Origin: Myxococcota bacterium | Lineage (GTDB): Bacteria > Myxococcota_A > UBA9160 > SMWR01 | Length of the DNA stretch: 64,000 bases | Assembly (NCBI GenBank): GCA_036560145.1 | Contig: DATBRV010000062.1 | Span: 108,703-172,702 of the forward strand | Direction of reading: 5' to 3' | In this document: positions 797 to 28,988 of the stretch, one piece after another | How positions within the stretch are numbered: the stretch's first letter is position 1 | How the letters are laid out: every line of letters starts with the position of its first letter | Program-made: the position numbers and the translations under genes | The notes under the pieces: generated by a model | Seen by the model: only the letters and a program-made list of their open reading frames with translations | What the model was told of the DNA's origin: nothing | Database searches by the model: none

Positions 797-868
797 CGCC
801 TGCTGGAGTGTGCTGGAGCGCCCCGTCGTGTCAACGCGCGTTGTCTCACCGGGACCCCTCCGGTAGGT

Positions 869-2104: not shown

Positions 2105-3136
2105 ATGGACGCCGCGGAATTCGACTACCCGCTGCCGCCCGATCGGATCGCGCAGGAGCCGACACTCGAGCGCGACGGCGCGCGCCTGCTGGTGCTGGAC
2201 CGCGCGCAGGCCGCGCTGCGGCATGCCGCCATCCGGGACCTGGCCGAGCTGCTGGAGCCGGGCGACCTGCTGGTGCGCAACGCGACGCGCGTGCTGCCGG
2301 CGCGCCTGCGCGGGCGCAAGCCCACCGGCGGCGCGGCCGAGGCCCTGTTGCTGGGCCCCCTGCCCGGCTCGCCCGGCCGCTTCCGCGCGCTGCTGCGCCT
2401 CACGGGCCGCGCGCGGCCGGGGGCGAAGCTGCACTTCGGCCCGCCGGACGCGGGGCTCGACGCCGAGCTGGTGGAGCGCGGCCCGGACGGGCTCGCCGTG
2501 CTCGCCTTCGCGCCGGACGCCGACCCCTACGCCATCGGCGAGACCCCCCTGCCCCCCTACATCCGGCGCGACGCCGCGCGCCCCGAGGACGCCTCCCGCT
2601 ACCAGACGGTGTATGCGCGGGCGCCGGGCTCGGTGGCCGCGCCCACCGCCGGGCTGCACCTCTCGGAGGCGCTGCTGGGCCGGCTCGCCGGGCGCGGCGT
2701 GGAGGTCGCCGATCTCGTGCTCCACGTCGGGCCCGGGACCTTCCAGAACCCCTCGCCGGAGCAGCTCGCGAGCGGGCTCCTGCACGCGGAGTCCTTCTGC
2801 CTGCCCGCCGCGGCGGCCCGCCAGGTGGCGGCTGCGCGCGCGCGCGGCGGACGCGTGGTCGCGGTCGGCACCACCAGCGCGCGCGTGCTCGAGGCCCAGG
2901 CCCGCCCGGATCGCGGGGTCGAGCCCGGGGAAGGCGAGACGCGCCTCTTCCTGCGCCCCGGCTCCCGCTTCCAGGTGGTGGACGCCCTGCTCACGAACTT
3001 CCACCTGCCGCGCTCCTCGCTGCTGATGCTGGTGGCCGCCTTGGCGGGCCGCGAGCGGGTGCTCGCCGCCTACGCCGAGGCCGTCCGCTCGGGCTACCGC
3101 TTCTACTCCTTCGGCGACGCGATGCTCGTGCTCTGA
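2105..3136 (+). CDS. queA: S-adenosylmethionine:tRNA ribosyltransferase-isomerase
   Basis: 343 aa. N-terminus FDYPLPPDRIAQEP and C-terminus LLTNFHLPRSSLLMLVAA...YRFYSFGDAMLV are typical QueA. It lies immediately upstream of tgt. Confidence 0.9.
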   Translation: MDAAEFDYPLPPDRIAQEPTLERDGARLLVLDRAQAALRHAAIRDLAELLEPGDLLVRNATRVLPARLRGRKPTGGAAEALLLGPLPGSPGRFRALLRLTGRARPGAKLHFGPPDAGLDAELVERGPDGLAVLAFAPDADPYAIGETPLPPYIRRDAARPEDASRYQTVYARAPGSVAAPTAGLHLSEALLGRLAGRGVEVADLVLHVGPGTFQNPSPEQLASGLLHAESFCLPAAAARQVAAARARGGRVVAVGTTSARVLEAQARPDRGVEPGEGETRLFLRPGSRFQVVDALLTNFHLPRSSLLMLVAALAGRERVLAAYAEAVRSGYRFYSFGDAMLVL

Positions 3137-3137
3137 G

Positions 3138-4259
3138 ATGCGCGCGGGCTTCTCCTTCCAGGTGGCCGCCGCCGACGGCGACGCCCGCTGCGGGCGGCTC
3201 ACGACACCTCATGGTGTGGTGGAGACTCCCGCCTTCATGCCGGTCGCGACCTACGGCGCCGTGCGCGGCGTCTCCCCCGACGAGCTGCTCGCGGCCGGCG
3301 CGCAGATCGTGCTCGCGAACACCTATCACCTGCACGAACGCCCGGGCGACGCGGTGGTGGCCGCGCTCGGCGGCCTGCACGGCTTCACCGGCTGGCGCGG
3401 GCCCTGGCTCACCGACAGCGGCGGCTACCAGGTGATGTCGCTGGCGGATCGCGCGCGAATCGACGAAGAAGGCGTGACCTTCGCGTCCCCGCTGGACGGC
3501 CGCCGCCGGCAGCTGACGCCCGAGCTCGCGGTCGGGATCCAGGAGCGCCTGGGGGCGGACGTCGCGATGGCGCTCGACGAATGCCCGCCGCCGGGCGGCG
3601 CCGGCGAGGACGGCGGCTTGCGCGCGCAGGCCGCAGCCGAGCGCACGCTGCGCTGGGCGGAGCGCTGCCGCCGCGCCCACCGCCGCGTCGATCAGGCCCT
3701 GTTCGGGATCGTGCAGGGCGGAACCAGCCCGGCGCTGCGCCGACACAGCGCCGCCTGCACCGCCTCGCTCGGGTTCGACGGCTACGCGCACGGCGGCCTC
3801 GGGCTCGGCGAGGAGAGCGCCCGGCGCATCGACCTGGTGAGCGCCGCGCAGGCCGAGCTTCCCGGCGAGGCGCCCCGCTACCTGATGGGGATCGGACGCC
3901 CGCAGGACCTGGTGGCCGCGATCGCCGTCGGGGTGGATCTCTTCGACTGCGTGATGCCCACCCGGCACGCCCGGCACGGCGTGCTCTACACCAGCCAGGG
4001 GCTGCTGCGCCTGCGCAACGCCCGTTTTCGCGATGATCCGGCGCCTCCCGATCCCGCCTGCGACTGCCCCGCCTGCGCGCTGCACTCGCGGGCCTACCTG
4101 CACCACCTGCTGCGCTCGAACGAGGCCCTGGGCGCGCGGCTCGCGAGCCTCCACAACCTCCGCTTCTACCTGGGGCTGCTCGCCTCAGCCCGCCGTGCGA
4201 TCGCCGCGGGAGGCTTCGCCGGCCTGCGGGCTCGCGTCGAAGCCCTCGCCGCCGAATGA
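3138..4259 (+). CDS. tgt: tRNA-guanine transglycosylase
   Basis: 373 aa. Motifs: RCGRLTTPHGVVETPAFMPV, LTDSGGYQV, MALDEC, and the zinc site CDCPAC...H. Its start is 1 nt after the queA stop. Confidence 0.93.
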   Translation: MRAGFSFQVAAADGDARCGRLTTPHGVVETPAFMPVATYGAVRGVSPDELLAAGAQIVLANTYHLHERPGDAVVAALGGLHGFTGWRGPWLTDSGGYQVMSLADRARIDEEGVTFASPLDGRRRQLTPELAVGIQERLGADVAMALDECPPPGGAGEDGGLRAQAAAERTLRWAERCRRAHRRVDQALFGIVQGGTSPALRRHSAACTASLGFDGYAHGGLGLGEESARRIDLVSAAQAELPGEAPRYLMGIGRPQDLVAAIAVGVDLFDCVMPTRHARHGVLYTSQGLLRLRNARFRDDPAPPDPACDCPACALHSRAYLHHLLRSNEALGARLASLHNLRFYLGLLASARRAIAAGGFAGLRARVEALAAE

Positions 4260-4320
4260 GCAGGCTCGACTCGTAACTCAAGAAGCCGCGCGCGGGTTCC
4301 GATCTGCCTCCCGGCGCCGT

Positions 4321-5928
4321 ATGGCGTCGCCGAGGAGGGGTCCGTTGCCGCTTCGTCCGAGCTTCGAGAGCCGCGCGCCGCTGGGGCGGATCGCGCTGCA
4401 CGCCGCCGCGATCCTGCTCGCGGGCGCCTGCGCGCTGGGCGTCCAGGCGCTCACCGGGAGCGCCGTCGCCGCGGGCCTCGCCTTCGGAATCGCCGCCCTG
4501 CTGGTGGCCCAGGGCCTCGCCCTGGTCCCGAGCGCCGAGCGCGCCCGGCTGGCCGAGCTCGAGGCCGCGCTGCACGAGATCGGCGTAAGCCAGGCTTCGC
4601 AGTCGCAGCGCGTCGCCGGCTTCGTGCAGCAGCTGCTAGAGCTGGCCACGGAGCTAGCGGCGGTCCACGCCTCGCTCGAGAAGGAGGCGCAGACGCAGGA
4701 CGTGGCGGTCGAGGAGACCGCGTCCCTTCAGGCCAACATCAACGGCTCGATCGGCGCCATCAACCGCGAGGTCGAGGGCCTGGCTCGCGCCAATGAGGAG
4801 TCCGCCTCCTCGATCCTCGAGCTCGGCAGCGCCGTCGAGCAGATGGCGGGCAGCGCGCAGGCGCTGCACCAGACCGTCGATTCGTCGACCAGCTCCATCC
4901 ACGAAATGGGGGCGAACATCCGGCAGGTCGCCCACAGCACGGATTCCGTGCAGCAGATGGCCGAAGAGACCGCCGCCTCGATTGCCCAGATGGACCGCGC
5001 GATCCAGGAGGTCGGCGTGCACGTGCGCGGCGCCTCCGAGCTCACGGAGCGGGTCAGCCAGAGCGCCGAAGAGGGCTCGCGCGCGGTGGGCGCCACCATC
5101 GAGGGCATCGCGCGCATCCGCGAGCTCACGCGCGATTCGAAGACGGCGCTCGAGGGGCTCGCCGAGCGGATCAGCGAGATCGGCAACATCGCCACCGTGA
5201 TCGGCGGGATCAGCGACGAGACCAACCTGCTCTCGCTCAACGCGGCGATCATCGCCGCCCAGGCCGGCGAGCACGGCAAGGCGTTCGCGGTGGTGGCCGA
5301 CCAGGTCAAGACCCTGGCGCGCCGCACCACGGCGAGCACCAAGGAGATCGAGCGCCTGATCGCCGACGTGCAGGAGCGCAGCGCGAAGACGATGGGCGCG
5401 ATGGGAACCGGCATCCAGGCGGTCGAGGAAGGCGTGACGCGCTCGCGCGTGGCGGGCGAGGCCCTGGAGGTGATCCGGGTGTCCGCGCGCGACGCGAGCG
5501 GCCGTGTCTCCGAGATCGCGCGCTCCGCCGAGGAGCAGGCGCGCAACTCGAAGTACGTGGCCGACGCCGCGCTGCGCACCTCCGCGCACGTGCAGCAGAT
5601 CTCCTCCGCGATGGCGGAACAGGCGCGCGCCGGCGACCAGCTGCTCCAGAACGCGACGACGTCGCTCGAGATGTGCAAGCAGATGTCGCACGCGACCGAG
5701 GAGCAGCGCGCGTCGGGGCGCTACATCACCGGCAACACCGAATCGATCACCGAGATGATCCGCACCATCCAGCAGAGCACGCGCTCGCACGAGCGCGCCA
5801 GCGCGGGGGTCGGCGAGACCTTCGTGGCCCTGATCGATAGCACGCGCACCAGCGGCCGCCGGATCCCCGAGATCCAGACCGTGATCGCGCGCCTGCGCGC
5901 AGCCGCGCAAGCGCTCCGTTCGGCCTAG
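4321..5928 (+). CDS. methyl-accepting chemotaxis protein
   Basis: Start chosen at ATG 4321. The track ORF from 4033 overlaps tgt in another frame. Two N-terminal TM helices are present, plus the conserved MCP hairpin ETNLLSLNAAIIAAQAGEHGKAFAVVADQVKTLARRT. Confidence 0.85.
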   Translation: MASPRRGPLPLRPSFESRAPLGRIALHAAAILLAGACALGVQALTGSAVAAGLAFGIAALLVAQGLALVPSAERARLAELEAALHEIGVSQASQSQRVAGFVQQLLELATELAAVHASLEKEAQTQDVAVEETASLQANINGSIGAINREVEGLARANEESASSILELGSAVEQMAGSAQALHQTVDSSTSSIHEMGANIRQVAHSTDSVQQMAEETAASIAQMDRAIQEVGVHVRGASELTERVSQSAEEGSRAVGATIEGIARIRELTRDSKTALEGLAERISEIGNIATVIGGISDETNLLSLNAAIIAAQAGEHGKAFAVVADQVKTLARRTTASTKEIERLIADVQERSAKTMGAMGTGIQAVEEGVTRSRVAGEALEVIRVSARDASGRVSEIARSAEEQARNSKYVADAALRTSAHVQQISSAMAEQARAGDQLLQNATTSLEMCKQMSHATEEQRASGRYITGNTESITEMIRTIQQSTRSHERASAGVGETFVALIDSTRTSGRRIPEIQTVIARLRAAAQALRSA

Positions 5929-6932
5929 TTTGATTGAGCTTCGCTCGCCTGCGGCTCGCTGCGCGCTCTGCTTGCGGCGTCCAGCGCAACACACAGGCCC
6001 GCGAGGTAGGGAAGCCGGGGGCCGAGCCCGCTCGGAAGGATCTTCAGATCGCGGCCCAGCAGCGGCCAGACGCGCGCGAGCACCTGCTCGCGCACGGGGC
6101 CCAGACACAGCGATTCGCCGGCGGCGCTCGGGATGGTGCCGAGGATCACGACCTCGGGCGCCAGCAGGAAGACCAGCGCCGTGATACCGCGCGCGAGGTA
6201 ATCGTTGTAACGGGCCAGCTCCGAGAGCGCGAAGGCGTCGCCCTCGCGCGCCGCCTCCACCACGTGCTCGGGGCGCGCCCGCTCGGGCGCGCCAGCGAGC
6301 GCCGCCACCCGGCTGCCGGCGGGCGTCGTGCGCGCCAGGCGCCGCGTCCAGGCGGCGCCGCCCACGTAGGCTTCGAGGCAGCCCCGCCCCCCGCACGCGC
6401 AGGCTTCCCCGTCCCACTCGACCGGCGCGTGCCCGAGCTCCCCCGCCATCCCGAGGTTGCCCGCGTAGAGCCTTCCGCCCAGCACCAGGCCGGCGCCCAC
6501 CCCCGTCGACATGGTCAGGAAGGCGACATGCTGGAAGCCGCGGCCGGCGCCGAAGCGCCACTCGGCGAGCGCCGCCGCGTTGGCGTCGTTCTCGACGCGG
6601 ACCGGCAGCCCGAGCCGCTCGCCGAGCAGGCGCCGGATCGGGACCTCGCGCCACCCCGGGAGGTTCGGCGGGTGGAGCAGCACGCCGCTCGCAGGGTCGA
6701 GGGGGCCCGGCGCGGAGACGCCGACCCCGCGCAGGTCCGAGACCGCGAGCCCGGCTTCGGCGCAGAGCGCGCGCGCCTCGTCGGCGAGAGCCGCCAGATC
6801 GCGTTCGGGATGCTCCGTGAAGCCCGTGGGCCGGCGCCGCTGCGCCCGCAGCCGGCCCTGCTCGTCGCCCACCGCCAGCGCGAGCTTGCTGCCGCCGATG
6901 TCGATGCCGAGCCAGAGCGGAATGAAAATCAC
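5925..6932 (-). CDS. ROK family sugar kinase (glucokinase-like)
   Basis: N-terminal LGIDIGGSK ATP-binding motif. ROK zinc motif GHAPVEWDGEACACGGRGCLEAY. GTG start at 6932. Confidence 0.85.
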   Translation of the reverse strand: MIFIPLWLGIDIGGSKLALAVGDEQGRLRAQRRRPTGFTEHPERDLAALADEARALCAEAGLAVSDLRGVGVSAPGPLDPASGVLLHPPNLPGWREVPIRRLLGERLGLPVRVENDANAAALAEWRFGAGRGFQHVAFLTMSTGVGAGLVLGGRLYAGNLGMAGELGHAPVEWDGEACACGGRGCLEAYVGGAAWTRRLARTTPAGSRVAALAGAPERARPEHVVEAAREGDAFALSELARYNDYLARGITALVFLLAPEVVILGTIPSAAGESLCLGPVREQVLARVWPLLGRDLKILPSGLGPRLPYLAGLCVALDAASRARSEPQASEAQSN

Positions 6933-7074
6933 CTGTCAAGTCAGGCACTTACGGGGAGCATCCGCGAGCATATCACAGCCCTTGAGCGCGACCGCCGAAT
7001 CGCCGATGGAGAAAGCCTAGACCCTGCGAGCGCGTGCCGTCGAATCTGCCGGTCGGCGCAGGGAGGGGGGCCGA

Positions 7075-7506
7075 ATGCGATCCGCGAGATGGCTCGTGCT
7101 GTGTGCGTTGCTGCTGCTCGGGCCGACCGGGTGCATCACCTGGTTCACCGATCCGATGGGCCACAAGGCCGCCTTCGACCAGATCCAGCGCCAGTACACC
7201 CAGTACCTGCGCTGGGGCGAGATCGGCAAGGCCAGCGCCTTCGTCGACCCGGCGCTGAAAGAGGCCTTCCTCGCGCAGGCGCCCGTCTTCGAAACCATGC
7301 GCATCACGGATTTCGAGATCGGCGAGCTCGAGTACACGAGCGACAGCGCGAAGGTCTCGGTCACCTACCAGGGCTACTCCCTCGAGACGTTCGTCGAGCG
7401 CAAGATCCGCGAGGATCAGACCTGGTATCGCGAAGGCAACAACCGCTGGCTGGTGCGCAGCGACGTCGGGGGCTTCGCCAAGGTATTCGGAGAGGCGCGA
7501 CCGTAG
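7075..7506 (+). CDS. hypothetical lipoprotein
   Basis: Shine-Dalgarno GGGAGGGG lies upstream. Lipobox LLLLGPTGC. GC3-rich codons. No domain recognised. Confidence 0.6.
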   Translation: MRSARWLVLCALLLLGPTGCITWFTDPMGHKAAFDQIQRQYTQYLRWGEIGKASAFVDPALKEAFLAQAPVFETMRITDFEIGELEYTSDSAKVSVTYQGYSLETFVERKIREDQTWYREGNNRWLVRSDVGGFAKVFGEARP

Positions 7507-7542
7507 CGGAGAGCGCGCCGCACACCGGACAGGAGAGCGCGG

Positions 7543-8280
7543 GTGGAGACCAGACGCTGCATTCTGATCGTCGATGACACCCCTCTGTTTCGCGATCTCG
7601 AATCCCTCTTCCTCGCGCGCTCCGGGCGCGTGGTCACGGCGCGCGACGCCGACGAAGGCCTCGCCGCCCTGCGCCGCGAGCGCCCGGACGTGGCGGTGAT
7701 CGACCTCCACATGCCGGGGACCGGCGGCGACGCGATGTGCCGCGCGATCAAGGCGGATCCCGAGCTCTCGCACACGCCGGTGATCCTGGTGATGGGCTCC
7801 GACGCGCCGGAGGACCACGCCCTCGCGATCCGGGCGGGCGCGGACGACGTGCTCGCGAAGCCCTTGAGCCGCGTGACGCTGATCCACGCCGTGAACCGCT
7901 TCCTGCGCTCGCCCGTGCTGCGCGGGCTGGCGCGCGTGCGCCTCGAGACGGCGGTCCGCATCCGCCTGCCCGACGAGGACGCCTGGGGCACGGTCCGCAA
8001 CCTCTCGCGCGGGGGTCTCTTCGTCGAGCTCGATCACTCGATCTCGCCCAGCACCGAAGTCGAGCTCGAATTCCGGCTCCCCGACGGGCCGACGCCGCTG
8101 GCCCCCACCGCCCAGGTGGTCTGGCACCGCCCGGGAACGCCGGGCGCGCCGATGGGGCTCGGCCTCCAGTTCCTCGCGCTGGACGGCGCCAGCGCGCAGC
8201 GGATCGAGGCGTTCGTCTACGAGCATCTGCCCGCGGCGCCGCAGGGGCTGCTCGCCGCGGTCGCCCTGGAGGCTGGATGA
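7543..8280 (+). CDS. response regulator with C-terminal PilZ domain
   Basis: Receiver motifs ILIVDD, VIDLHMPG, LAKP. PilZ-type motifs RVRLETAVR and NLSRGGLFV. GTG start after AGGAGAG. Confidence 0.8.
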   Translation: METRRCILIVDDTPLFRDLESLFLARSGRVVTARDADEGLAALRRERPDVAVIDLHMPGTGGDAMCRAIKADPELSHTPVILVMGSDAPEDHALAIRAGADDVLAKPLSRVTLIHAVNRFLRSPVLRGLARVRLETAVRIRLPDEDAWGTVRNLSRGGLFVELDHSISPSTEVELEFRLPDGPTPLAPTAQVVWHRPGTPGAPMGLGLQFLALDGASAQRIEAFVYEHLPAAPQGLLAAVALEAG

Positions 8281-8639
8281 GGCGCTGGAGCCTGCTCGCA
8301 TTGATTCTCGGACTCTGTTTGTCCGCGGCCCCGCTCCGGGCCGACGACGACGCGGAATTCGCGTCCTGGCGGGAGCGCCTCGAGCAGGCGCAAACGGATC
8401 TGATCCGCGCCCGCGAGCAGGCGGCCGCCGCGCACGCCGCCTACGTGGACATGCGTCACGATCGCTCGATGCGCGGGGAAGAGAAGGCGAAGATCATCGC
8501 CGCGCGCGCCAGCACCGAGCACGCCGCCGCGGACGCGCAGGCGCGCTTCGACGCCTTGCGGGAGGAAGCGCGCCGCGCCGGGGTTCCGCCCGGCTTCGTG
8601 CCGCCGGACCCGCCCGCCGAGGCCAGCCCCGACTCCTGA
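8277..8639 (+). CDS. secreted coiled-coil protein, unknown function
   Basis: ATG 8277 overlaps the upstream stop (ATGA). Signal peptide MRRWSLLALILGLCLSAAPLRA, followed by Ala/Glu/Arg-rich helical sequence. Confidence 0.5.
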   Translation: MRRWSLLALILGLCLSAAPLRADDDAEFASWRERLEQAQTDLIRAREQAAAAHAAYVDMRHDRSMRGEEKAKIIAARASTEHAAADAQARFDALREEARRAGVPPGFVPPDPPAEASPDS

Positions 8640-9221
8640 TCAGTACGGGAGATCGAACTCGGACTCGTCGTGGATGTCGGTGGTGACGCTCCACTCGCGC
8701 AGCCGCGGCCGCAGGATCGAGAGGATCTGGTCGCCCTGCCGGACCACCTGCGTCTGGCGGGTCACCGCCTTGCCTTCGGGCCGCGTGAAGAGCGTGTCGA
8801 CGACGATCGGCTCGCTGCTCATGTTCTGCGAGATCTCGACGGAAGGCTCGTAGCTGTTGGCGCTCTGCATCGAGAGCGAAGCCGTCGAGCCCGTGCCGCC
8901 CGCCACCATCGCATCGTCGCGGCGCGCGACGGGCCGCGCATTCACGCTGCGCAGGTACGCGAGGCGCCGGTCGAGCTGCTCGGCGTAGCGCTCGGCCGCC
9001 GCGTCGTCGGAGGGCGTGTAGCGCTGGTAGTCCCCGAGCCGCCCCGCCTCGCGCTGCTTCGCCTGGTCGCGATAGCGCGCGGGGATCGCCTTCGGATCGT
9101 CCGTGAAGGCGTAGCCACCGTCCTCGGTCCGCCAGGAATAGACCGGGTCCGCCGAGGCCGGCGCGGCGAGCGCCGCGAGCAGCAGGATCGCCCCGGACGA
9201 AAGGAGGAATCGCGAACGCAT
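8640..9221 (-). CDS. secreted protein with DUF4124-like N-terminal motif
   Basis: Signal peptide ...LAAPASA followed by DPVYSWRTEDGGYAFTDDP, a DUF4124-like pattern. Convergent with 8277..8639 across the palindrome TGATCA. Confidence 0.6.
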   Translation of the reverse strand: MRSRFLLSSGAILLLAALAAPASADPVYSWRTEDGGYAFTDDPKAIPARYRDQAKQREAGRLGDYQRYTPSDDAAAERYAEQLDRRLAYLRSVNARPVARRDDAMVAGGTGSTASLSMQSANSYEPSVEISQNMSSEPIVVDTLFTRPEGKAVTRQTQVVRQGDQILSILRPRLREWSVTTDIHDESEFDLPY

Positions 9222-9343
9222 CTGAGGTGCTCCATGGGGGTTTCAATACACCCGTATAGTGGCACCTGGCTGACAAAAAATGTCAACTTTTTCAGTATCT
9301 TGGCTGCGCAACCCCGGCGCAAACCGCGCGCAGGCGGGCTGGT

Positions 9344-9372
9344 TTGACAGGCCTGCCCGCAGGGGATATACG
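9344..9372 (+). promoter_or_regulatory. candidate sigma-70 promoter of tRNA-fMet
   Basis: TTGACA (9344-9349), a 17-nt spacer, then TATACG (9367-9372), about 15 nt upstream of tRNA position 1. An AT-rich tract lies upstream at 9275-9305. Confidence 0.4.
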
Positions 9373-9387
9373 TCCAAATCGCTTTGT

Positions 9388-9464
<77 letters not shown>

Positions 9465-9471
9465 CCTAGAG

Positions 9472-9507
9472 CAGACGCCCGGCGCCCTTCGTAGGCCCGG
9501 GCGTCTG
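9472..9507 (+). terminator. hairpin H1 downstream of tRNA-fMet
   Basis: CAGACGCCCGG pairs with CCGGGCGTCTG (11 bp, 14-nt loop), followed by CCGTTCTT. The same hairpin recurs at 10992-11026 and 16072-16106. Confidence 0.5.
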
Positions 9508-9811
9508 CCGTTCTTGGTGACGACTCGAATCGGCCCTCGACCGGGTCGCGCAGTTCGGTGTGGTCTGGGACGCGCGGAGCCGAGGGCTTCTCGCCCGGCA
9601 ACTCCGCGCTAAAGCCGCAGTTCGCACGGCGGAATCACCGACGCCCGTTGGCGTCGCCCGCCGCCATCGTGCTCAATCCGCGCCGCTGTCGTGACGTCTC
9701 CACACGAGCGGTCAACGTGCAAGGATCCCGCACGGCCGGCTGGGGAAAACCTGGCGGACTCCCACCACGAATACGCCCCCGGCCTCGAATCACCATCGGT
9801 CACAACGGGCC

Positions 9812-9877
9812 GCTATGCAAGAAGCTCCAAGGGCACCCGCAGCGCGTCGCGCATCGTGAAAATGCCCCCCCCGCTAC
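9812..9877 (+). repeat. acceptor-mimic repeat unit, copy A
   Basis: GCTATGCAAGAAGCTCCAAGGGCACCCGCAGCGCGTCGCGCATCGTGAAAATGCCCCCCCCGCTAC. It aligns with units B1, C and D and ends in poly-C plus GCTAC, like the tRNA 3' end. It lies 193 nt upstream of the 10070 start. Confidence 0.65.
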
Positions 9878-10069
9878 GGGGGGCGTCGCGGAGAGCGGCC
9901 CGACACGATGGGCGGCGGTGGGGTTTCTCAGCTCTTTGGAAGGGCGAACTAGCTCTTCCCGCTGGTGTATTGATCCGGGGAGGCGCAGTGTGGGGCAAAC
10001 GATGGGAAGGGGCGCGGTGGTGGGCGTGCCGCCGGGATCCTCTTCCGTTATTTGCGAGAGGGGACTCCA

Positions 10070-10810
10070 ATGCGCCGTCTGCTACTGATCGCGTTCGCCG
10101 TCCTCGTGGCCCCGGTTCTCGCCCCCGCTGCGTTTGCGGTCGGAATCAGTTTGGGGGGGGTAAGCGCAATCGATCCCTCCGCGTGTAACACCTCCACATG
10201 CGATTCCGGTACTCCCTACGTACCTACGACCTTGCCCGACTCGGGCACGGTGAGTGCCACCTTCGCCGGAAACAGCTCGACGATAGGCTACAACCTTTCG
10301 AACTCTGCGTTCATGATCACCTTTGACGAGACTAGCGGGGTAAACCTGAATGACACAGGGTACGTCATCGCACAAATCGATTTCACTCCCGACGCGAACG
10401 TGGACTACTCGCTTGATGGGGCCTACGGCGCCCTCGACGCAGTCGCTGGTTATGATGCCCTTAGCGTTAGTCTTGTTGACCTCACTGACAGTGTCGCTCT
10501 ATTTGTAAACAGCCAAGTTAGCATCGGGACCCCCTTTGAGAGCTTGACTCTCGGGCAAGTAGGCGGCGACTGGAGCAACTCCTTATCCGGCTCTCTCAGC
10601 GGCAGCCTGATCGCCGGCCACAACTACCGGTTCAACGCGCAATCTCAGAAGGCGAACCTTGGCGCCTCCGCTGGTGCGTCGGCGAGCGGCTTCGTCAATC
10701 TAACCTTCATCCCCGAGTCCGGCACGGGCCTGCTCGTGATGACAGGCCTACTCGGGCTTGCGTACCGGCAGCGGCGACATGGGCGCGCAGTGAATCGGGC
10801 CCGCCGGTAG
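10070..10810 (+). CDS. PEP-CTERM sorting-domain protein (Ser/Gly/Asn-rich ectodomain)
   Basis: ATG 10070 follows GAGAGGGGA. Signal peptide MRRLLLIAFAVLVAPVLAPAAFA. C-terminus IPESGTGLLVMTGLLGLAYRQRRHGR is a PEP-CTERM-type tail. Third codon positions are visibly more A/T-rich than in neighbouring genes. Confidence 0.8.
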   Translation: MRRLLLIAFAVLVAPVLAPAAFAVGISLGGVSAIDPSACNTSTCDSGTPYVPTTLPDSGTVSATFAGNSSTIGYNLSNSAFMITFDETSGVNLNDTGYVIAQIDFTPDANVDYSLDGAYGALDAVAGYDALSVSLVDLTDSVALFVNSQVSIGTPFESLTLGQVGGDWSNSLSGSLSGSLIAGHNYRFNAQSQKANLGASAGASASGFVNLTFIPESGTGLLVMTGLLGLAYRQRRHGRAVNRARR

Positions 10811-10851
10811 CCTCCGGGAACACGCGGCTAGAGAAACCGCTCGCACTCGGC

Positions 10852-10989
10852 CTACGCGACGAACTCGAGCGGTGCCCGGAGCGCGTCTCGACTGGTGAAA
10901 ATCGCCCGCCTCCCCCGCTACGCGGCGAACTCGATTACCGCCTCGACCGCGCGTCGGGCGTTCCAAAGCGCCCCCCCGCTACCACCTAG
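10852..10989 (+). repeat. two head-to-tail acceptor-mimic units (B1, B2) ending in a copy of the tRNA-fMet 3' end
   Basis: B1 is 10852-10921 (CTACGCGACGAACTCGAGCGGTGCCCGGAGCGCGTC...CCCCCGCTAC). B2 is 10917-10986. The stretch 10973-10989 CCCCCGCTACCACCTAG is identical to tRNA positions 9453-9469. Confidence 0.75.
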
Positions 10990-10991
10990 AG

Positions 10992-11026
10992 CAGACGCCC
11001 GGCGCCTTCCCAGGCCCGGGCGTCTG
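10992..11026 (+). terminator. hairpin H1, second copy
   Basis: The stem arms are identical to 9472-9507. The whole stretch 10973-11031 matches 9453-9512 except in the loop. Confidence 0.5.
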
Positions 11027-11068
11027 CCGTTTCGAGCGCCAGATCGAGCCGTCCCGGTCCGCTTCGCT

Positions 11069-11353
11069 TCAGCCCACGCCGTCGCCGCGCGTGCACGTGC
11101 CGCTGTTGTTGTCGCCCGAATAGCTGTGATTGCTCTGCTGGCAACGGTCCTTGAAGGTGGCGCAATCAGAGGCCGCGTCGGCCTTGCAGGTCTTCACGTC
11201 GCAGCGCACCCCATCCGAATTGGGAACCGTGCAGTTCGTGGTCCTCGCGACCGGCTGCGGGCCATTGTCGGTATCCATGACGTCGCCGGCCGGTGGTTTG
11301 GAGCAACCATGGGCGATCAACAACACGGTGCAGGCGAGCAGGATTCGATTCAT
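11069..11353 (-). CDS. small Cys-rich lipoprotein
   Basis: GGAGAG Shine-Dalgarno 4 nt before ATG 11353. Lipobox LLIAHGC. Eight Cys in the precursor including the lipobox Cys (seven in the mature chain). Confidence 0.6.
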   Translation of the reverse strand: MNRILLACTVLLIAHGCSKPPAGDVMDTDNGPQPVARTTNCTVPNSDGVRCDVKTCKADAASDCATFKDRCQQSNHSYSGDNNSGTCTRGDGVG

Positions 11354-11368
11354 GATTCTCTCCGGTAG

Positions 11369-11818
11369 CTACATCCGTCCCAGGTCGGTGATGGCGTCGA
11401 GCACCATTCCCGTGCCGATCGCGATCAGCAGCACATCGTTCGCCACGCGCACGAAGCGGTAGCCGGGCGGCGGCACGCCAAGCTCGACGACCAGCGGCGG
11501 GGGCAGATCGTAGAAGATCAACTCGCGCGGCAGGGGCCGGCCGATCGTCCAGAGCTTCTTCGCCTGCCCCGGCGGCAGGCAGCCGTTGTTCTTCTTGGCG
11601 AGGCCGGGCGGGCAATGGCCCGCCCCGATCTCCTTCGCGTACCAACCGCGCACCGCGGCCTGTTGGGGCTCGTCGAAGCGCACCTCGACGCGCTGCTTCC
11701 CCTGGTCGTCGTGGCCGTGCTTGCCCTTCTTTCCGTGCTGCTCGTTTCCGGCCCAGGCGGGTCCGCCCGCGAGGGCGGCCACAAGGGCGAGTGCGAGGAT
11801 CGAAGACGGATGGGTCAT
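11369..11818 (-). CDS. RcnB/CigR-like periplasmic protein
   Basis: GGGAGGA Shine-Dalgarno. Signal peptide ...LAGGPAWA. His/Lys-rich stretch, then CPPGLAKKNNGCLPPGQAKK...PPPGYRFVRVANDVLLIAIGTGMVLDAI, the pattern I associate with the RcnB/CigR family. Confidence 0.65.
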   Translation of the reverse strand: MTHPSSILALALVAALAGGPAWAGNEQHGKKGKHGHDDQGKQRVEVRFDEPQQAAVRGWYAKEIGAGHCPPGLAKKNNGCLPPGQAKKLWTIGRPLPRELIFYDLPPPLVVELGVPPPGYRFVRVANDVLLIAIGTGMVLDAITDLGRM

Positions 11819-11980
11819 GGAATCCTCCCGTGACGGAATCGGACGATAACCCGCCCACGGCAGCCGGCCTCCCGACCTCCTGGGCGGCCTCGAGCTCGAA
11901 GCCTTGCGCGGTCAATCGCTCAGGGATTCCCTGCCAGCTCGCGCACCAGCCGGCGAAGGAACTCCAGGGCCGCGCATGGG

Positions 11981-12052
11981 GCTACGCCGCGAACGCGAGC
12001 GGCACGTGGAGGCCCGCCTGCATTCGGACAAATCGCCCCCCCCCGCTACCAC
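11981..12052 (+). repeat. acceptor-mimic repeat unit, copy C, ending in a tRNA 3'-end copy
   Basis: GCTACGCCGCGAACGCGAGCGGCACGTGGAGGCCCGCCTGCATTCGGACAAATCGCCCCCCCCCGCTACCAC. The core 12040-12052 equals the tRNA 3' end through CCAC. It ends 160 nt upstream of ATG 12212. Confidence 0.7.
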
Positions 12053-12054
12053 TT

Positions 12055-12087
12055 GAAGCCCCCGGAATCGAAAGGTTCCGGGGGCTT
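12055..12087 (+). terminator. hairpin H2
   Basis: GAAGCCCCCGGAA pairs with TTCCGGGGGCTTC (13 bp, 7-nt loop). A related hairpin lies at 13281-13313. Confidence 0.45.
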
Positions 12088-12211
12088 CGTCTTCCAGGCC
12101 CCCAACATTCTGGCCGTCTTCTGACATTTTCTGGTCGCAGCGACCACAACCAATGCCACCAATTCGTCCTGCCGCCCACATACCCATCGTACGACCCTGG
12201 GAGGGACGTCG

Positions 12212-13090
12212 ATGGCCCCGCCTGTTCGCTCGCTCCTCACTCGTCGCTTCGGTCTTGCGTCGGGTCCCTTTTCGTCGAGAGGGTTCCGGCGTTGCTTCTG
12301 GCGAGAAGTCTCACTTCGTTTGATGGCAGCCTCGCTCGTGTTTGCGGTTGCGGGACGAGCCATGGCCACGGAGCTGGTTGGTTCCAACTATATTGTTCCC
12401 AACACACTAATAAGAATCGACACCTCGACTGGGGCCGGTACGGCGGTCGGTCCGTTGGTCGAGAGCGTGAGGGGCCTCGCGTTCGACACAAACACGGGCA
12501 CCCTATATGGGACGCTGTTCGCTACGGATTCACTTCTTCTAAGAATCAATTACTCGACGGGAGCGGCGACAGTGGTCGGTTCGTTGGGATCCGTAGACCC
12601 CGAGGGACTCGCGTTCGACCCCAACACGAATACGTTGTACGGGACGAATGTCTTTACGGATCAACTCTTGACGATCGACACCTCGACCGGAGCACCTACG
12701 GCCGTCGGCGCACTGGGTTTCCCCGCCGTGGGCGGACTCGCATTCGACCCCAACACGAATACGTTGTACGGGACGGATTTCATTCTTGACCGACTTGTCA
12801 CGATCGACACTTTGACCGGAGCGGCGACAGAGGTCGGTCCGTTGGGTATCCCGCGCGTGGAAGGTCTCGAGTTCGACCCCAACACGAATACGCTGTACGG
12901 AACGGGTACCATCAGTGACGAACTCTTGACGATCGACACCTCGACTGGGGCGGCCACTGCGGTCGGCCCGTTGGGGTTCGGATTTGTGGTGGGCCTTGCT
13001 GTCGTCCCTGAACCCTCCACCGCGCTCCTCCTTGGCGCCGGTCTCCTGATGTTCGCAAGCGCAAGGCGACCGACCCAGCGACTGCATTGA
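12212..13090 (+). CDS. PEP-CTERM protein with tandem 43-aa beta-propeller-like repeats
   Basis: Strong Shine-Dalgarno GGGAGGGA 5 nt before ATG 12212; ATG 12323 is an alternative start. Repeats GLAFDPNTNTLYGT....D.LLTIDTSTGAATAVGPLG. C-terminus VPEPSTALLLGAGLLMFASARRP. Confidence 0.8.
   Translation: MAPPVRSLLTRRFGLASGPFSSRGFRRCFWREVSLRLMAASLVFAVAGRAMATELVGSNYIVPNTLIRIDTSTGAGTAVGPLVESVRGLAFDTNTGTLYGTLFATDSLLLRINYSTGAATVVGSLGSVDPEGLAFDPNTNTLYGTNVFTDQLLTIDTSTGAPTAVGALGFPAVGGLAFDPNTNTLYGTDFILDRLVTIDTLTGAATEVGPLGIPRVEGLEFDPNTNTLYGTGTISDELLTIDTSTGAATAVGPLGFGFVVGLAVVPEPSTALLLGAGLLMFASARRPTQRLH
12470..12997 (+). repeat. coding tandem repeats, 129-bp period
   Basis: GGACTCGC(G/A)TTCGACCCCAACACGAATACGTTGTACGGGACG recurs at 12605 and 12734, with the variant GGTCTCGAGTTCGACCCCAACACGAATACGCTGTACGGAACG at 12863. 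More diverged copies lie upstream. Confidence 0.8.
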
Positions 13091-13209
13091 GATGCACTCC
13101 GCTTCGGCCCCGGCCGGGCGCGACCCCACAGAGGCGGCACGGGCGCGCAGCATAGGGGGTCCGCCCGTAGCGTCGGGGACTCGCGGCACGGGCAATGGTT
13201 TACGCTCAA

Positions 13210-13282
13210 GCTACGCGACGAGCTCGAGCGGCACGCGGAGGGAGTCGGACATCTGACGTAGCGCCCCCCCGCTACCACCTAG
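13210..13282 (+). repeat. acceptor-mimic repeat unit, copy D, ending in a tRNA 3'-end copy
   Basis: GCTACGCGACGAGCTCGAGCGGCACGCGGAGGGAGTCGGACATCTGACGTAGCGCCCCCCCGCTACCACCTAG. The stretch 13266-13282 is identical to tRNA 9453-9469. Confidence 0.75.
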
Positions 13283-13320
13283 GCCCCCGGAACCGCGATG
13301 GTTCCGGGGGCTTCCTTTTT
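13281..13320 (+). terminator. intrinsic terminator-like hairpin H2' with T-run
   Basis: GCCCCCGGAACC pairs with GGTTCCGGGGGC (12 bp, 5-nt loop), followed by TTCCTTTTT. Confidence 0.6.
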
Positions 13321-13890
13321 CAGGCGTTGGCGATAGTGGTGGGACTCTGGTGGGACTTCTCGCCGAGCCGGGCCAGCAGATCCGCCGGCACCTCGCCGGG
13401 GCCGGCCTCGAGCGGCCTCCGGAAGGCGTCGTCGCCGCACCAGCGCGCGTAGTGCCGGGCCGTCACCGCGACGTCCGCGTGGCCGAGCTGCGCGGAGACG
13501 TAAACGAGCTGCATCCCGGCCGAGAGAAGCTGCGAGGCGTAGGTGTCGCGCAGGTTGTGGGGCGTGTACGACGCCCACACGCCGTGTTCGTCCAGGGTTC
13601 CGATCCCCGTCGCCTTGCACAGACCGCGGAGCGTCCGGTTCCGGTAGTTGGCGTGGTCGACCCGTGCCACGAACCCCGACTCCGGCCTCCCCTCGCGCAT
13701 CCAGGTCTCCCTGAGTGCGCGCCGGAGCCGCCGCGACAAGCGCCGCCACGTCCTCCGGCTTCTCGATCGGCTGCGCCTTGTGGCCGGCCTCGTTCTCCGC
13801 CCTGCCCTTCTTCGTCTGGTTGCGCCGCCGCAGCACCGCGCGCACGCCCCGGTCCGGGGAGCGTATCAAGGCGGCCTCGGGCCCGATCAC
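13320..13890 (-). pseudogene. tyrosine recombinase (phage-type integrase), frameshifted and internally deleted
   Basis: Frame 13320..13739 holds the C-terminal catalytic region ...YTPHNLRDTYASQLLSAGMQLVYVSAQLGHADVAVTARHYARW (H-x-x-R, H, Y). The linker-like piece ...PIEKPEDVAALVAAA sits in another frame (13741-13890). The segment that should carry the first catalytic Arg and the Lys is missing. Confidence 0.7.
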
Positions 13891-14157: not shown

Positions 14158-14838
14158 TTGCAGACCAAGCGATATCTGTTGATCCTCGTGTCTCTGGGGC
14201 TGTGCGCACCAGCGGCTGCCGCTCCCATCACAATTCCCACAAGTCTCGATCCGGGGGACGAATATCGCCTAGCCTTCGTGACGTCGCCTAAACGCAACGG
14301 GGCGTCTTCGCTAATTGCGTCCTACAACGCCTTCGTCACCGACGTCGCCAACACCCAGGCCGCGCTGGCGTCACTCGGCACCACGTGGAAGGCGATCGGC
14401 TCAACGGCGACGGTCGATGCACGGGATAACACCGGCACGAACCCGGTCGTCGATGGGGTCGGGGTCCCGATCTTCCTCCTGAACGACACATTGCTGGCAG
14501 ACGACAATTCCGACCTGTGGGATGGAGACATCCTTGTGCCATTTGCGATAGATGAAGCAGGCGCGGTGAGTCCGTTGAGCTTCGTCTGGACCGGCACGAC
14601 TTCGTCGGGTGTTGCTCACCCTTTCCCCTTGGGCTCCGAGGAACCGGTGATCGGCACAACCGGGATGACGAATAGCAACTGGGTGGATGGCGCCAAACTC
14701 TTTTCGTTCTTGGAACGGCCCGTTTACGCGGTGTCCGATGTCTTGATCGTCGTCCCCGAGCCCGGCACCGGCCTCCTCGTGATGACGGGCCTACTCGGGC
14801 TTGCATACCGGCAGTGGCGCCAGCGGCGCGAAGCGTAG
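14158..14838 (+). CDS. PEP-CTERM sorting-domain protein
   Basis: No ATG lies near the signal peptide. TTG 14158 after GGAAGGG gives (M)QTKRYLLILVSLGLCAPAAAAP. C-terminus VPEPGTGLLVMTGLLGLAYRQWRQRRE. The track ORF from 13648 is an upstream read-through. Confidence 0.7.
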   Translation: MQTKRYLLILVSLGLCAPAAAAPITIPTSLDPGDEYRLAFVTSPKRNGASSLIASYNAFVTDVANTQAALASLGTTWKAIGSTATVDARDNTGTNPVVDGVGVPIFLLNDTLLADDNSDLWDGDILVPFAIDEAGAVSPLSFVWTGTTSSGVAHPFPLGSEEPVIGTTGMTNSNWVDGAKLFSFLERPVYAVSDVLIVVPEPGTGLLVMTGLLGLAYRQWRQRREA

Positions 14839-14928
14839 AGGATCCGCCCGTCGCCCGCGGGGTGTTGCTCGGGCTAGAATCGCCCCGCGATCGCTCGACC
14901 CGCCGCCGGCTACATTTGGGAGAACTCC

Positions 14929-16059
14929 ATGCCGCGCACGTCCCTCCAGCTCCGGTCGAAGATCACGGCAAACGCCCAGCTCGAGCTCTCGCTGGCCGAG
15001 GTGGAAGTCGCCGATCCCGGACCGGACGAAGTCCTGGTGCGCATCGAAGCCGCGCCCATCAATCCCTCGGACCTTGGCCTGCTGTTCGGCCCCGCGGACA
15101 TGCGCACCGCGAAGACTTCCGGGAGTGACTCACACCCGCTGGTGACGGCCGACGTTCCCGCGGACCAGATGCGCGGCGTCGCGGCGCGCGTCGACCAGTC
15201 GCTGCCCGTCGGCAACGAAGGCGCGGGCATCGTGGTCGCCGCCGGCGAATCTCCCGCCGCGCAGGCGCTGCTCGGCCGGACGGTCGGGGTGATCGGCGGC
15301 GCGATGTACGCGCAGCTGCGCAGCACGAAGCTCGGTCAGTGCCTCGCCTTCCCCGACGGAACCCGACCGGCCGAGTGTGCGTCGTGGTTCGTGAATCCGC
15401 TGACCGCGCTCGGGATGGTGGAGACCATGCGCAAGGAGGGCTTCACGGCGCTCGTCCACACCGCGGCCGCGTCGAACCTGGGACAGATGCTGGTCAAGCT
15501 CTGCCTCGCCGACGGTGTGCCGCTCGTCAACATCGTGCGCAAGCCCGAGCAGGCAAAGCTGCTGCGTTCCCTCGGTGCGGTGCACGTCGTCGATTCGAGC
15601 GCGCCGACCTTCATGGCCGACCTGATCCGGGCCGTCAGCGAGACGGGCGCGACGCTCGCGTTCGACGCCACGGGCGGAGGCAAGCTCGCGAGCCAGATCC
15701 TGACGGCGATGGAGGCGGCGCTCAACGCGAAGGCGACCGAGTACAGCCGCTACGGCTCGACGGCCCCGAAGCAGGTCTACATCTACGGCGGCCTCGATCG
15801 CTCGCCCACCGAGCTGACGCGCAACTTCGGTATGGCCTGGGGCGTCGGCGGCTGGCTCCTCACGCCGTTCCTGCAGAAGAACGGCGACAAGGTGCCGAAG
15901 CTCCGCGATCGCGTCGCGGCCGAGATCAAGACCACCTTCGCGAGCCACTACACCCGGGAAGTGTCGCTCGCCGAGGCTCTCTCGCTCGCCGCCATCGCCG
16001 TCTACGGCAAGCAGTCGACCGGCGAGAAGTACCTGATCAACCCCAGCCGGAAAATCTGA
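14929..16059 (+). CDS. medium-chain dehydrogenase/reductase (quinone oxidoreductase / enoyl reductase-like)
   Basis: GGGAGAA Shine-Dalgarno. Motifs VLVRIEAAPINPSD, GNEGAG, and the nucleotide-binding region ALVHTAAASNLGQMLVKL. Confidence 0.85.
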   Translation: MPRTSLQLRSKITANAQLELSLAEVEVADPGPDEVLVRIEAAPINPSDLGLLFGPADMRTAKTSGSDSHPLVTADVPADQMRGVAARVDQSLPVGNEGAGIVVAAGESPAAQALLGRTVGVIGGAMYAQLRSTKLGQCLAFPDGTRPAECASWFVNPLTALGMVETMRKEGFTALVHTAAASNLGQMLVKLCLADGVPLVNIVRKPEQAKLLRSLGAVHVVDSSAPTFMADLIRAVSETGATLAFDATGGGKLASQILTAMEAALNAKATEYSRYGSTAPKQVYIYGGLDRSPTELTRNFGMAWGVGGWLLTPFLQKNGDKVPKLRDRVAAEIKTTFASHYTREVSLAEALSLAAIAVYGKQSTGEKYLINPSRKI

Positions 16060-16071
16060 GACTGCGTAGAG

Positions 16072-16106
16072 CAGGCGCCCGGTGCCTTCCCAGGCCCGGG
16101 CGTCTG
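16072..16106. terminator. hairpin H1, third copy, between convergent genes
   Basis: TAGAGCAGGCGCCCGGTGCCTTCCCAGGCCCGGGCGTCTG (16067-16106) differs from 10987-11026 at 2 positions (3 if the flanking GTCGTT/GCCGTT is included). It lacks the CCCCGCTACCACC core. Confidence 0.5.
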
Positions 16107-16160
16107 TCGTTCCAGACCACGCATCTTCAGCATTCGCGTTCGTCGCGCGCCGAGCACGCC

Positions 16161-16982: not shown

Positions 16983-17264
16983 CGGGTGCCTCCTTCGCAA
17001 TTCCAGGGGAGCGTAGCGGTCCCGGCCGCCGCGCCCGATCCGTGAGACCATCATACAACTGGGTGTCAATCAGGCCGGCGGAGCGCAGGAAGGGACACGC
17101 CGCCCCAATCGTTCGCGCGGCGCACGTTGGACTTGCGACCGAGTCCACTCGCGATCGAACGCACCGCTGTCGCCGGTGAGGCGAAGCCCCTCGAACTCGA
17201 GCTCGCTGCCACCCACGCGCGCAGCCAAGCCACATTCCCTACAGGCAACTCTGGAGGTGAGTCG

Positions 17265-18200
17265 ATGAGCCTGCTTGTCCGTTCGCTCCTCGCTCGTGCG
17301 TTGATGCTGGCCGGATTGCTGACGGCATGGGCTGCGCCGACAGCGAGCGCCAGCGGGATCTATTGGAGCGCGAACGGAGCGATCGGCCGCGCGAACCTCG
17401 ACGGCACGGGCGCGAACGCGAGCTTCATTCCGGGCGTCAATGCGGGTGAAATCGCCGTCGACGCCACGTCCGTGTACTGGACCAGGAACACTGGCACGAT
17501 CGGCCGCGCGAACCTGGATGGCACGGCGGTGAACCCGAATTTCATCTCGGCGATTCCCGGAGTGAGTGGTGTCGCTGCCGACGGATCACATGTCTACTGG
17601 ATCAGGCCAGGCGGTGAAAGTCCAACGATCGGCCGCGCGAACCTCGATGGCACGGGGATCGTCGAGACCGTCGTCTCCGGGGTCGGCCCAGACGCGTCCG
17701 ACCTTGCCGTGGACGGATCGCACCTCTACTGGGTCAATGCCGGTGTGAGCGGTGTTGCCAGCGCGAATCTCGACGGCACCGGAGTAGACGAGATCGTGAT
17801 CGTTCCGGGTTCTTGCTGCTATTTCAATCAGATTACCGACATCGCCGTCGGTGACTCGGGCCTCTACTATGCCTACGTGGGCGTGCCGGTGCACTACATG
17901 TTTCCGCCCACAGGCGCGATCGAGGGCGGGCGGGGGAGCATCTCCGGGACCGATCTCTCTCCGCGCGGTGTCGCGCTCGACGAGACGTTCGTCTATTGGA
18001 CGAATTTATACCCAGCCTCGGGGATCTGGCGCGCGAACCTCGACTTCTCTGGGGCAACGCTCCTGATCTCGGGCGGATATGGAGATATTGCGGTGTCGCC
18101 CGAGCCCGTGCCCGAGCCCTCCGCGATCCTGCTGCTGATGGCAGGACTGGTGGGGCTTGCGTACCGGCAGAGGCGGCACGCGATGCCTCAATCTGCCTGA
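17265..18200 (+). CDS. PEP-CTERM protein with YWTD-type (LDL-receptor class B-like) beta-propeller repeats
   Basis: GGAGGTGAG Shine-Dalgarno. Signal peptide ...WAAPTASA. Repeated (I/V/L)YW(S/T/I/V)....G.IGRANLDGTG blades. C-terminus SPEPVPEPSAILLLMAGLVGLAYRQRRH. Confidence 0.8.
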   Translation: MSLLVRSLLARALMLAGLLTAWAAPTASASGIYWSANGAIGRANLDGTGANASFIPGVNAGEIAVDATSVYWTRNTGTIGRANLDGTAVNPNFISAIPGVSGVAADGSHVYWIRPGGESPTIGRANLDGTGIVETVVSGVGPDASDLAVDGSHLYWVNAGVSGVASANLDGTGVDEIVIVPGSCCYFNQITDIAVGDSGLYYAYVGVPVHYMFPPTGAIEGGRGSISGTDLSPRGVALDETFVYWTNLYPASGIWRANLDFSGATLLISGGYGDIAVSPEPVPEPSAILLLMAGLVGLAYRQRRHAMPQSA

Positions 18201-23702: not shown

Positions 23703-23740
23703 GCAGTGCTTCTCCTGGCGGCTTGTCTCGGGTGGAGAGT

Positions 23741-24604: not shown

Positions 24605-24687
24605 AGCCCCGCTACCCCTCCCGCGAAAACGCTTGACAACCGCGCGGGCTCCGACGTAATCCTGTTTCCCAGACGAGGAGGCGCGTC

Positions 24688-28986: not shown

Positions 28987-28988
28987 CC

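Follow-up and report, generated by a model that had tools for sequence, protein, structure and literature searches.

Probable tandem array of decayed phage-derived integrative elements at an initiator tRNA gene of an uncultured Myxococcota bacterium

The metV gene of Escherichia coli encodes the initiator tRNA, tRNA-fMet. It is among the most frequently targeted tDNAs of this species (PMC7545054). Tandem accretion of elements and their decay to cis-mobilizable elements (CIMEs) are known from the ICESt1-related islands of Streptococcus thermophilus and from streptococcal tRNA-Lys tandems (PMC5704250), and segments that are flanked by attachment (att) sites and lack an integrase are a described outcome of decay plus accretion (PMC5704250; PMC3146451). 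The ssrA islands of Dehalococcoides are each bounded by a repeat of about 20 bp of the gene's 3' end, and 15 of them have no integration module (PMC3146451). Here we analyze a stretch of 64,000 nt from a Myxococcota genome (assembly GCA_036560145.1, contig DATBRV010000062.1, positions 108,703 to 172,702; hereafter, the window), in which the region downstream of an initiator tRNA gene is likely an integration hot spot with a tandem array of decayed phage-derived integrative elements. An earlier note on this DNA (the original prediction) had proposed serial site-specific integration at the tRNA and had considered both the initiator-tRNA target and the small size of the intervals unusual. Neither is without precedent, since metV is a frequent target (PMC7545054) and integrase-less, att-flanked segments have been described as CIMEs (PMC5704250; PMC3146451).

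As in the CIME and accretion systems (PMC5704250), direct repeats of the target gene's 3' end mark the limits of the array in the window, arms of the elements are found on both sides of internal junctions, several units are devoid of integrase and transfer genes, and newer elements would enter at the att site that includes the end of the gene. The window units differ from these systems in that they are unusually short (0.06-1.5 kb) and belong to an uncultured Myxococcota host. With the ssrA islands of Dehalococcoides (PMC3146451) the window shares multiple tandem islands downstream of a single small-RNA gene, integrase-less segments, nucleotide conservation beyond the repeat, variation of the islands between strains and a recurrent cargo class, which is rdhA in Dehalococcoides and PEP-CTERM genes here. 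However, the Dehalococcoides islands are larger, many of them are intact, and they combine the serine recombinase DsiB with tmRNA instead of a tyrosine integrase with an initiator tRNA. Lambda/P4-type tRNA integration, including the metV islands of E. coli, resembles the window in the tyrosine integrase beside attL, the duplication of the tRNA 3' end at attR, the atypical composition of the insert and the initiator tRNA target (metV). The window deviates from this type in that its integrase is a fragment and that several remnants are stacked instead of one island.

The features that define the array are listed below by window position.
9388-9464, + strand: initiator tRNA-Met(CAT) gene (ARAGORN; Rfam RF00005, 65.5 bits), the attachment target; its last 12 nt start the repeated core
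9453-9469, + strand: core copy 1, CCCCCGCTACCAC followed by CTAG, within and just beyond the tRNA; acts as attL of the array
9471-9508, + strand: hairpin H1, copy 1, terminator-like and GC-rich
9825-9877, + strand: arm a and partial core a (CCCCCCCCGCTAC, then GGGG), which close a segment without genes (9470-9877) on its right
10851-10921, + strand: arm b and partial core b (CCCCCGCTAC, then GCGG)
10922-10989, + strand: unit of about 60 nt that ends in core copy 2 (10973-10989)
10991-11027, + strand: hairpin H1, copy 2
11981-12052, + strand: arm d and core copy 3 (12040-12052, then TTGA)
12055-12088, + strand: H2-type hairpin, copy 1; the integrase-adjacent hairpin of locus L126 (see below) has the identical loop
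13120-13282, + strand: relic of a PEP-CTERM tail (13120-13179), arm e (13210-13265) and core copy 4 (13266-13282)
13281-13313, + strand: hairpin H2, copy 2, then a T-run; between core and integrase stop codon, as in all relatives
13323-13890, - strand: tyrosine-integrase pseudogene (PF00589 match and tblastn with the intact integrase P0121)
16071-16107, + strand: hairpin H1, copy 3, directly after the stop codon of a Zn-dependent alcohol dehydrogenase (Zn-ADH) gene, without a core

Hallmarks of an initiator tRNA are the CAT anticodon, a run of three G:C pairs in the anticodon stem, A11:U24 and the lack of a Watson-Crick 1:72 pair; in E. coli, position 1:72 is C1:A72. In the window, the only tRNA gene detected by ARAGORN and Rfam shows the CAT anticodon, a GGG/CCC anticodon stem, A11 and a U:U mismatch at 1:72, which identifies it as an initiator tRNA gene. 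The Rfam scan of the window gave no match besides this tRNA. The T72 form of the 3' half, in which U1 (9388) stands opposite U72 (9460), is also present in metagenome-assembled genomes (MAGs) of many phyla.

Four direct copies of the 3' end of this tRNA had been reported in the original prediction, and the exact count agrees. The 13-mer CCCCCGCTACCAC occurs exactly four times in the 64 kb, at 9453, 10973, 12040 and 13266 (core-to-core distances, 1520, 1067 and 1226 nt), always on the + strand and with its first copy inside the intact tRNA-fMet gene, whereas 0.14 copies are expected per window and four copies were reached in 0 of 100 shuffles. It is followed by CTAG at copies 1, 2 and 4 and by TTGA at copy 3. 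That the 13-17-mer might be common elsewhere had been named as a possible refutation, and the window holds no further full copy. In addition, there are two partial cores, CCCCGCTAC at 9869 and 10913, in which identity ends after GCTAC. All exact and partial cores are on the + strand and restricted to 9453-13278. A further CCCCGCTAC at 24607 was considered as a distal attR and rejected: it is a bare 9-mer without arm or hairpin, 0.58 copies are expected per window, and we treat it as a chance occurrence. This copy (24607-24615) directly follows the stop codon of the gene at 23723-24604; it is probably fortuitous but could mark a very old distal boundary. Another stray 9-mer lies inside a gene at 3873.

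The three intervals between exact cores (9470-10985, 10986-12052 and 12053-13278) are bounded by cores and contain no recombinase gene. If the partial cores at 9869 and 10913 are counted, at least five junction-delimited segments are present instead of the predicted three, one of which (9470-9877) is gene-less and one (10922-10985) only about 60 nt long. The short unit at 10922-10989 may be the trace of an element that lost its contents. Independent contigs from four JGI metagenome samples span every junction with 99.9-100% identity, and therefore the structure is not an assembly artifact.

Upstream of the cores at 9869, 10913, 12040 and 13266 lies a homologous arm of about 45-70 nt (GCTACGCGACGAGCTCGAGCGGCAC…; pairwise z of 5.7-7.1 versus shuffles). 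The arms were also considered as decayed copies of the tRNA body, and this was discarded, since local alignments to tRNA positions 1-65 were no better than those of shuffles (p 0.18-0.98). The likeness of the C-run/T-loop part of the arm to tRNA-fMet of other lineages is only anecdotal.

Downstream of the exact cores, two types of hairpin are found, as the original prediction had described. The regions of H1 copies 1 and 2 (9444-9512 and 10964-11031) are 93% identical and differ in the loop alone, and both hairpins fold at about -35 kcal/mol (z = -5.6). The different but mutually related H2 regions after the last two cores (12035-12099 and 13261-13325; 65 nt) are 74% identical, and both form strong hairpins. 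A third H1 region (16062-16112), 93% identical to 10987-11031, adjoins the stop codon of the Zn-dehydrogenase gene (14929-16059) and has no tRNA-derived core; TAGAGCAG is common to all H1 copies. This third copy may derive from a junction that has eroded or be a free-standing terminator repeat. H2, on the other hand, is a feature of the element's integrase end: every relative keeps it beside the integrase gene (int), whereas H1 is also found off any core.

A tyrosine recombinase gene lies next to core copy 4, in the form of a PF00589 fragment 41 nt from the core. The open reading frame (ORF) at 13320-13739 on the - strand matches PF00589 positions 101-167 of 172, which is the C-terminal third of a tyrosine recombinase. 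tblastn with the intact relative P0121 (406 aa) placed its residues 287-406 at 13709-13323 and residues 158-204 at 13890-13753, in another frame. The equivalents of residues 1-157 and 205-286 are gone, the latter including Arg I and the beta-hairpin Lys, and therefore the integrase is a real pseudogene. Thus, the last core copy abuts the 3' end of an integrase pseudogene in an att-int layout, as had been proposed, and the identical layout is found in the intact relative at tRNA-fMet.

The 120 best word-indexed matches to the integrase fragment were all short fragments, and an exhaustive HMMER search then yielded full-length relatives of 400-450 aa. Many metagenomic homologues (P0005-P0029) were called as 140-aa proteins starting with MSRRL. 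A conserved domesticated protein consisting of this 140-aa C-terminal ORF was considered and rejected: its start Met is internal in longer forms, full-length relatives have 400-450 aa, and the truncations differ between loci. The 140-aa homologues are better explained as independent pseudogenes, together with the start choice of the gene caller.

The closest full-length relative, P0121, is 71% identical to the window remnant and is encoded on the contigs L128 and L129. There, the stop codon of P0121 is followed by an H2-type hairpin and then by GTGGTAGCGG…, the tRNA-fMet 3' end, exactly the layout of the window at copy 4. The original prediction had called for a search for an intact integrase paralogue, and P0121 is an intact relative with the tRNA-fMet/H2/int arrangement of the window. 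The element on L128 further includes genes for an HK97-type major capsid protein and a DUF3631 protein, together with a PEP-CTERM gene that lies on the strand opposite int, as in the window. In L157, int is accompanied by terminase, portal and protease-capsid genes, and the far repeat (attR) is a 45-nt 3' half of tRNA-fMet. With their capsid, portal and terminase genes (L128, L157), the parent elements here look like temperate phages, unlike integrative and conjugative or integrative and mobilizable elements.

With a profile of the integrase family, 80 metagenome loci were gathered. Full-length members are convergent with, and about 45-120 nt away from, the 3' ends of tRNA-Arg, Gly, Val, Gln, Glu, Phe and others, and the members closest to the window remnant adjoin tRNA-Met(CAT). 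In metagenomes, most copies of this tRNA-fMet subfamily are pseudogenes that are truncated in differing ways. Direct repeats reaching from the anticodon loop to the 3' end surround a 1.2-kb remnant at a tRNA-Arg gene (46 nt; L192, 2065-3338) and a 4.7-kb remnant at a tRNA-Gly gene (45 nt; L201, 2326-7051); because these remnants are so small, we conclude that this family often gives rise to mini-islands with integrase stubs. A search of a viral contig collection with P0121 gave no matches.

One- and two-gene units of about 1-1.5 kb, split by a repeated site and adjacent to a tyrosine recombinase gene, would also be expected of an integron-like cassette array, in which attC-type sites lie beside a decayed integron integrase. 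We attach almost no probability to this explanation and rejected it, together with the related class of attC arrays lacking an integron integrase (CALIN). The best match of P0121 is to phage integrases (phrog_1, E = 2.5e-45), and its family stays far below the cut-offs for integron integrases (TIGR02249, 49.6 versus 265 bits; NF011946, 27.7 versus 435 bits). Intact relatives reside at tRNA 3' ends and beside phage head genes, and the integrase is convergent with the array, which it abuts by its 3' end. Furthermore, the repeat is a tRNA 3' end and not an attC-type imperfect palindrome; no attC model was run, but the site consists of this 3' end and a non-palindromic arm, and H1 and H2 are simple GC stems.

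Contigs that encode the closest integrase fragments proved to carry the corresponding locus of relatives. In L123/L124, L125 and L127, the left flank (QueA, TGT, MCP, ROK, RR-PilZ, DUF4124, tRNA-fMet) is collinear with window positions 1-9470. In L123, L125 and L127, the tRNA is directly followed by sequence matching window positions 13267-13860, without mini-islands; positions 9465-13265 are missing. The order at their junction is tRNA…CCGCTACCA, an H2-type hairpin and the int stop codon of the integrase remnant. Because the relatives join the tRNA directly to H2 and int, the window has 3.8 kb of extra DNA between these points when compared to them. In L123, a second core (GCGCCCCCCCGCTACCA) lies 2.3 kb away, past the int remnant and one cargo gene, so that this island is flanked on both sides. 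L126, a relative of lower GC, has an internal junction of core, H2 and int remnant, and a displaced 20-nt fragment of the tRNA 3' end 6 kb further on. The island between these two points (1929-6472) harbors two sulfatase genes.

A scan of genome contigs with the 3' half of the tRNA showed a pattern spread over many phyla, and L079, from a GTDB MAG labelled Pseudomonadota, was the only real relative. Its tRNA is 100% identical to that of the window and has the same DUF4124 neighbor. The downstream cargo is a single, different gene, encoding an FGE-sulfatase with a PEP-CTERM tail. After this gene come a degenerate core (CCGCTACCACTT) and a GC hairpin. Sulfatase-related genes may be a cargo theme, given the sulfatases of L126 and the FGE-sulfatase-domain protein of L079.

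A variant of the junction itself was found in L212 (JGI 3300035167, Ga0373474_0040769), a contig from the same series of samples. Its identity to window positions 7652-9462 (1811 nt) is 100% and ends exactly after …CCCCCGCTAC; the next 168 nt (L212 1-168) are absent from the whole window and contain a terminator hairpin and an ORF starting with MHALQTFALA. In the L212 haplotype, the CCA end encoded by the tRNA gene would be incomplete. We also considered L212 as the right boundary of the window array at H1 copy 3, and rejected this, since the best alignment (16092-16120) scored 28 and random windows reach 30. Hence, a comparison with related loci, as had been suggested to find empty sites and alternative cargo, revealed empty-like sites in L123/L124, L125 and L127, alternative cargo in L079, and in L212 a breakpoint at the core. 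Along with the intact integrase at tRNA-fMet, these loci support serial site-specific integration at the tRNA.

In the mechanism that we propose, elements with an integrase of the tyrosine family would recombine their own site, in the order arm, CCCCCGCTAC(CAC), hairpin and int 3' end, with the 3' end of tRNA-fMet. Recombination would occur within the 10-13-nt core and, more narrowly, within CCCCCGCTAC, because the break follows immediately on GCTAC in three junctions (a, b and L212) and the functional tRNA keeps its host-type T-stem. Each integration would restore the tRNA and leave a second core at the far end of the insert. Later arrivals would reuse the tRNA-proximal site, so that older inserts are shifted outwards by tandem accretion. 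Deletions would then strip integrase and phage genes, leaving segments of 0.06-1.5 kb that retain an att-like junction (arm, core and hairpin) and sometimes a host-useful cargo, mostly PEP-CTERM surface proteins. By this order of events, each segment would once have had its own integrase. The pseudogene at 13323-13890 with H2 would be the relic of one such element, and PEP-CTERM gene 3 may be its cargo. The segment from 12053 begins with an H2 hairpin and has CAGGC at the position of the int stop codon, which suggests that it, too, may once have carried int. For the small intervals, the best reading is that they are remnants of deletion, comparable to CIMEs.

The cargo genes are the following.
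10070-10810, + strand: PEP-CTERM gene 1; GC about 0.59-0.60, GC at third codon positions (GC3) 0.71
11069-11353, - strand: small Cys-rich ORF, 94 aa
11369-11818, - strand: gene for an RcnB/CigR-like protein; GC3 0.90, native-like
12212-13090, + strand: PEP-CTERM gene 2 with DUF4394/DUF6923 repeats (five 129-nt units); GC3 0.68
14158-14861, + strand: PEP-CTERM gene 3 (14158-14838) and its 3' flank

The predicted identities of the two PEP-CTERM proteins (by their tails) and of the RcnB/CigR-like protein were confirmed; for the Cys-rich ORF, library searches gave no family match, and its label as a lipoprotein is unconfirmed. With a crude tail motif, four ORFs with a PEP-CTERM tail were detected in the window, all on the + strand and all within 10.0-18.2 kb; three of the four genes share the tail GL(L/V)GLAYRQ(R/W)R. 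The tail and flank of gene 3 (14750-14861) are 81% identical to 10707-10818 of gene 1, and a relic of the tail of these two genes follows gene 2. Only the sorting tails of the PEP proteins align; no homology among their passenger domains was found by alignment. PEP-CTERM gene 3 is probably the cargo of the element that owned the integrase.

The composition of the PEP genes (GC about 0.60; GC3, 0.68-0.76) is atypical when compared to the native flanking genes (GC3, 0.91-0.93). The original prediction had let the islands end at the integrase. This did not hold, since PEP-CTERM genes and low-GC3 DNA run on to about 18 kb: the fourth PEP-CTERM gene is located at 17127-18200, and low-GC3 ORFs reach about 23 kb, which suggests that the foreign region extends well past the integrase.

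Several observations weigh against the proposed array of decayed phage-derived elements. The "empty" sites belong to distant relatives, whose flanking genes share about 60-70% protein identity with those of the window, and the L212 variant, which continues for just 168 nt past the junction, may represent an empty site or another element. The tRNA identity block is only 13-17 nt in the window, versus 45-46 nt in other members of the same integrase family, which sets the window apart from lambda/P4-type integration as well and makes the position of the crossover uncertain. The RcnB-like gene, with its native-like GC3, is an exception to the atypical composition. No intact integrase, excisionase or phage structural gene was found in the 64-kb window, and therefore current mobility is unsupported. 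H1 need not be the end of an element, since it is present at 16071 without a core. Finally, the similarity of the arms is limited to this genome; they show no likeness to the arms of L123, L126 or L079.

The last two observations would also fit repeats produced from a module of tRNA end and terminator through local duplication, through unequal crossing-over or through gene conversion, with H1 and H2 as REP-like terminator repeats. Local duplication of arm and core could yield the same pattern, the PEP tails and their 3' flanks are paralogous, and units b and c stand in tandem, separated by about 60 nt. Nevertheless, we judge this origin very unlikely: neither content nor composition relates the segments between the repeats to one another, it is precisely at the core that the relatives and L212 depart from the window, H2 is linked to int throughout, and the repeated unit has exactly the att-int configuration of the intact element and of members across the integrase family.

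The integrated segments might also still be mobile. As integrase-less units with a full att site, akin to CIMEs, satellites or cassettes, they would be moved by an integrase that a resident or infecting phage of the family provides in trans, with shuffling of PEP-CTERM genes. Conservation of the downstream hairpins and the significant conservation of the arms upstream of four junctions would suit such units, as would the difference of a near-identical haplotype (L212) exactly at the core, the repeated appearance of PEP-CTERM genes as cargo (window, L079 and the intact element of L128), and the 3' module common to PEP-CTERM genes 1, 2 and 3; moreover, CIMEs and cis-mobilization are documented elsewhere (PMC5704250, PMC3146451). 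However, the window has no intact integrase, the same arrangement is present in the contigs of all four samples, the cores at two junctions are degenerate, one segment has no gene at all, and no circular or excised junction was found, although no search aimed at one was made. We therefore regard present mobility as unlikely. Similarly doubtful is that the short units are a working, integron-like and tRNA-anchored cassette system, in which cassettes that keep a full attP-type site (arm, core and hairpin) are captured, excised and reshuffled in trans by phage integrases of the tRNA-fMet subfamily. If so, the locus would be a hot spot that diversifies PEP-CTERM (exosortase-sorted) surface proteins in uncultured Myxococcota.

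Returning to the array of decayed elements, its distinctive features are the host lineage, the phage origin, the very short remnants and the enrichment of PEP-CTERM genes; otherwise, the pattern is a known one, and it reveals no new mechanism. For an uncultured lineage of Myxococcota, the locus documents a subfamily of phage integrases with specificity for the initiator tRNA, and the footprint that such elements would leave, namely stacked att scars that keep surface-protein genes. As relatives show empty-like sites and other cargo, and a near-identical haplotype has a variant of the junction, the locus offers a clean teaching case of accretion followed by decay. It also points to prophages as carriers of PEP-CTERM genes; in a narrow literature search, no paper tying PEP-CTERM genes to tRNA-integrating prophages was found.

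Two minor observations concern other parts of the window sequence. The repeats in PEP-CTERM gene 2 (12416-13008) are five tandem units of 129 nt (43 aa) that match DUF4394 and DUF6923 and have a beta-propeller-like look. Far downstream, the AT skew is strongly negative (down to -0.45) at 27600-30000, over the genes at 27349-30509.

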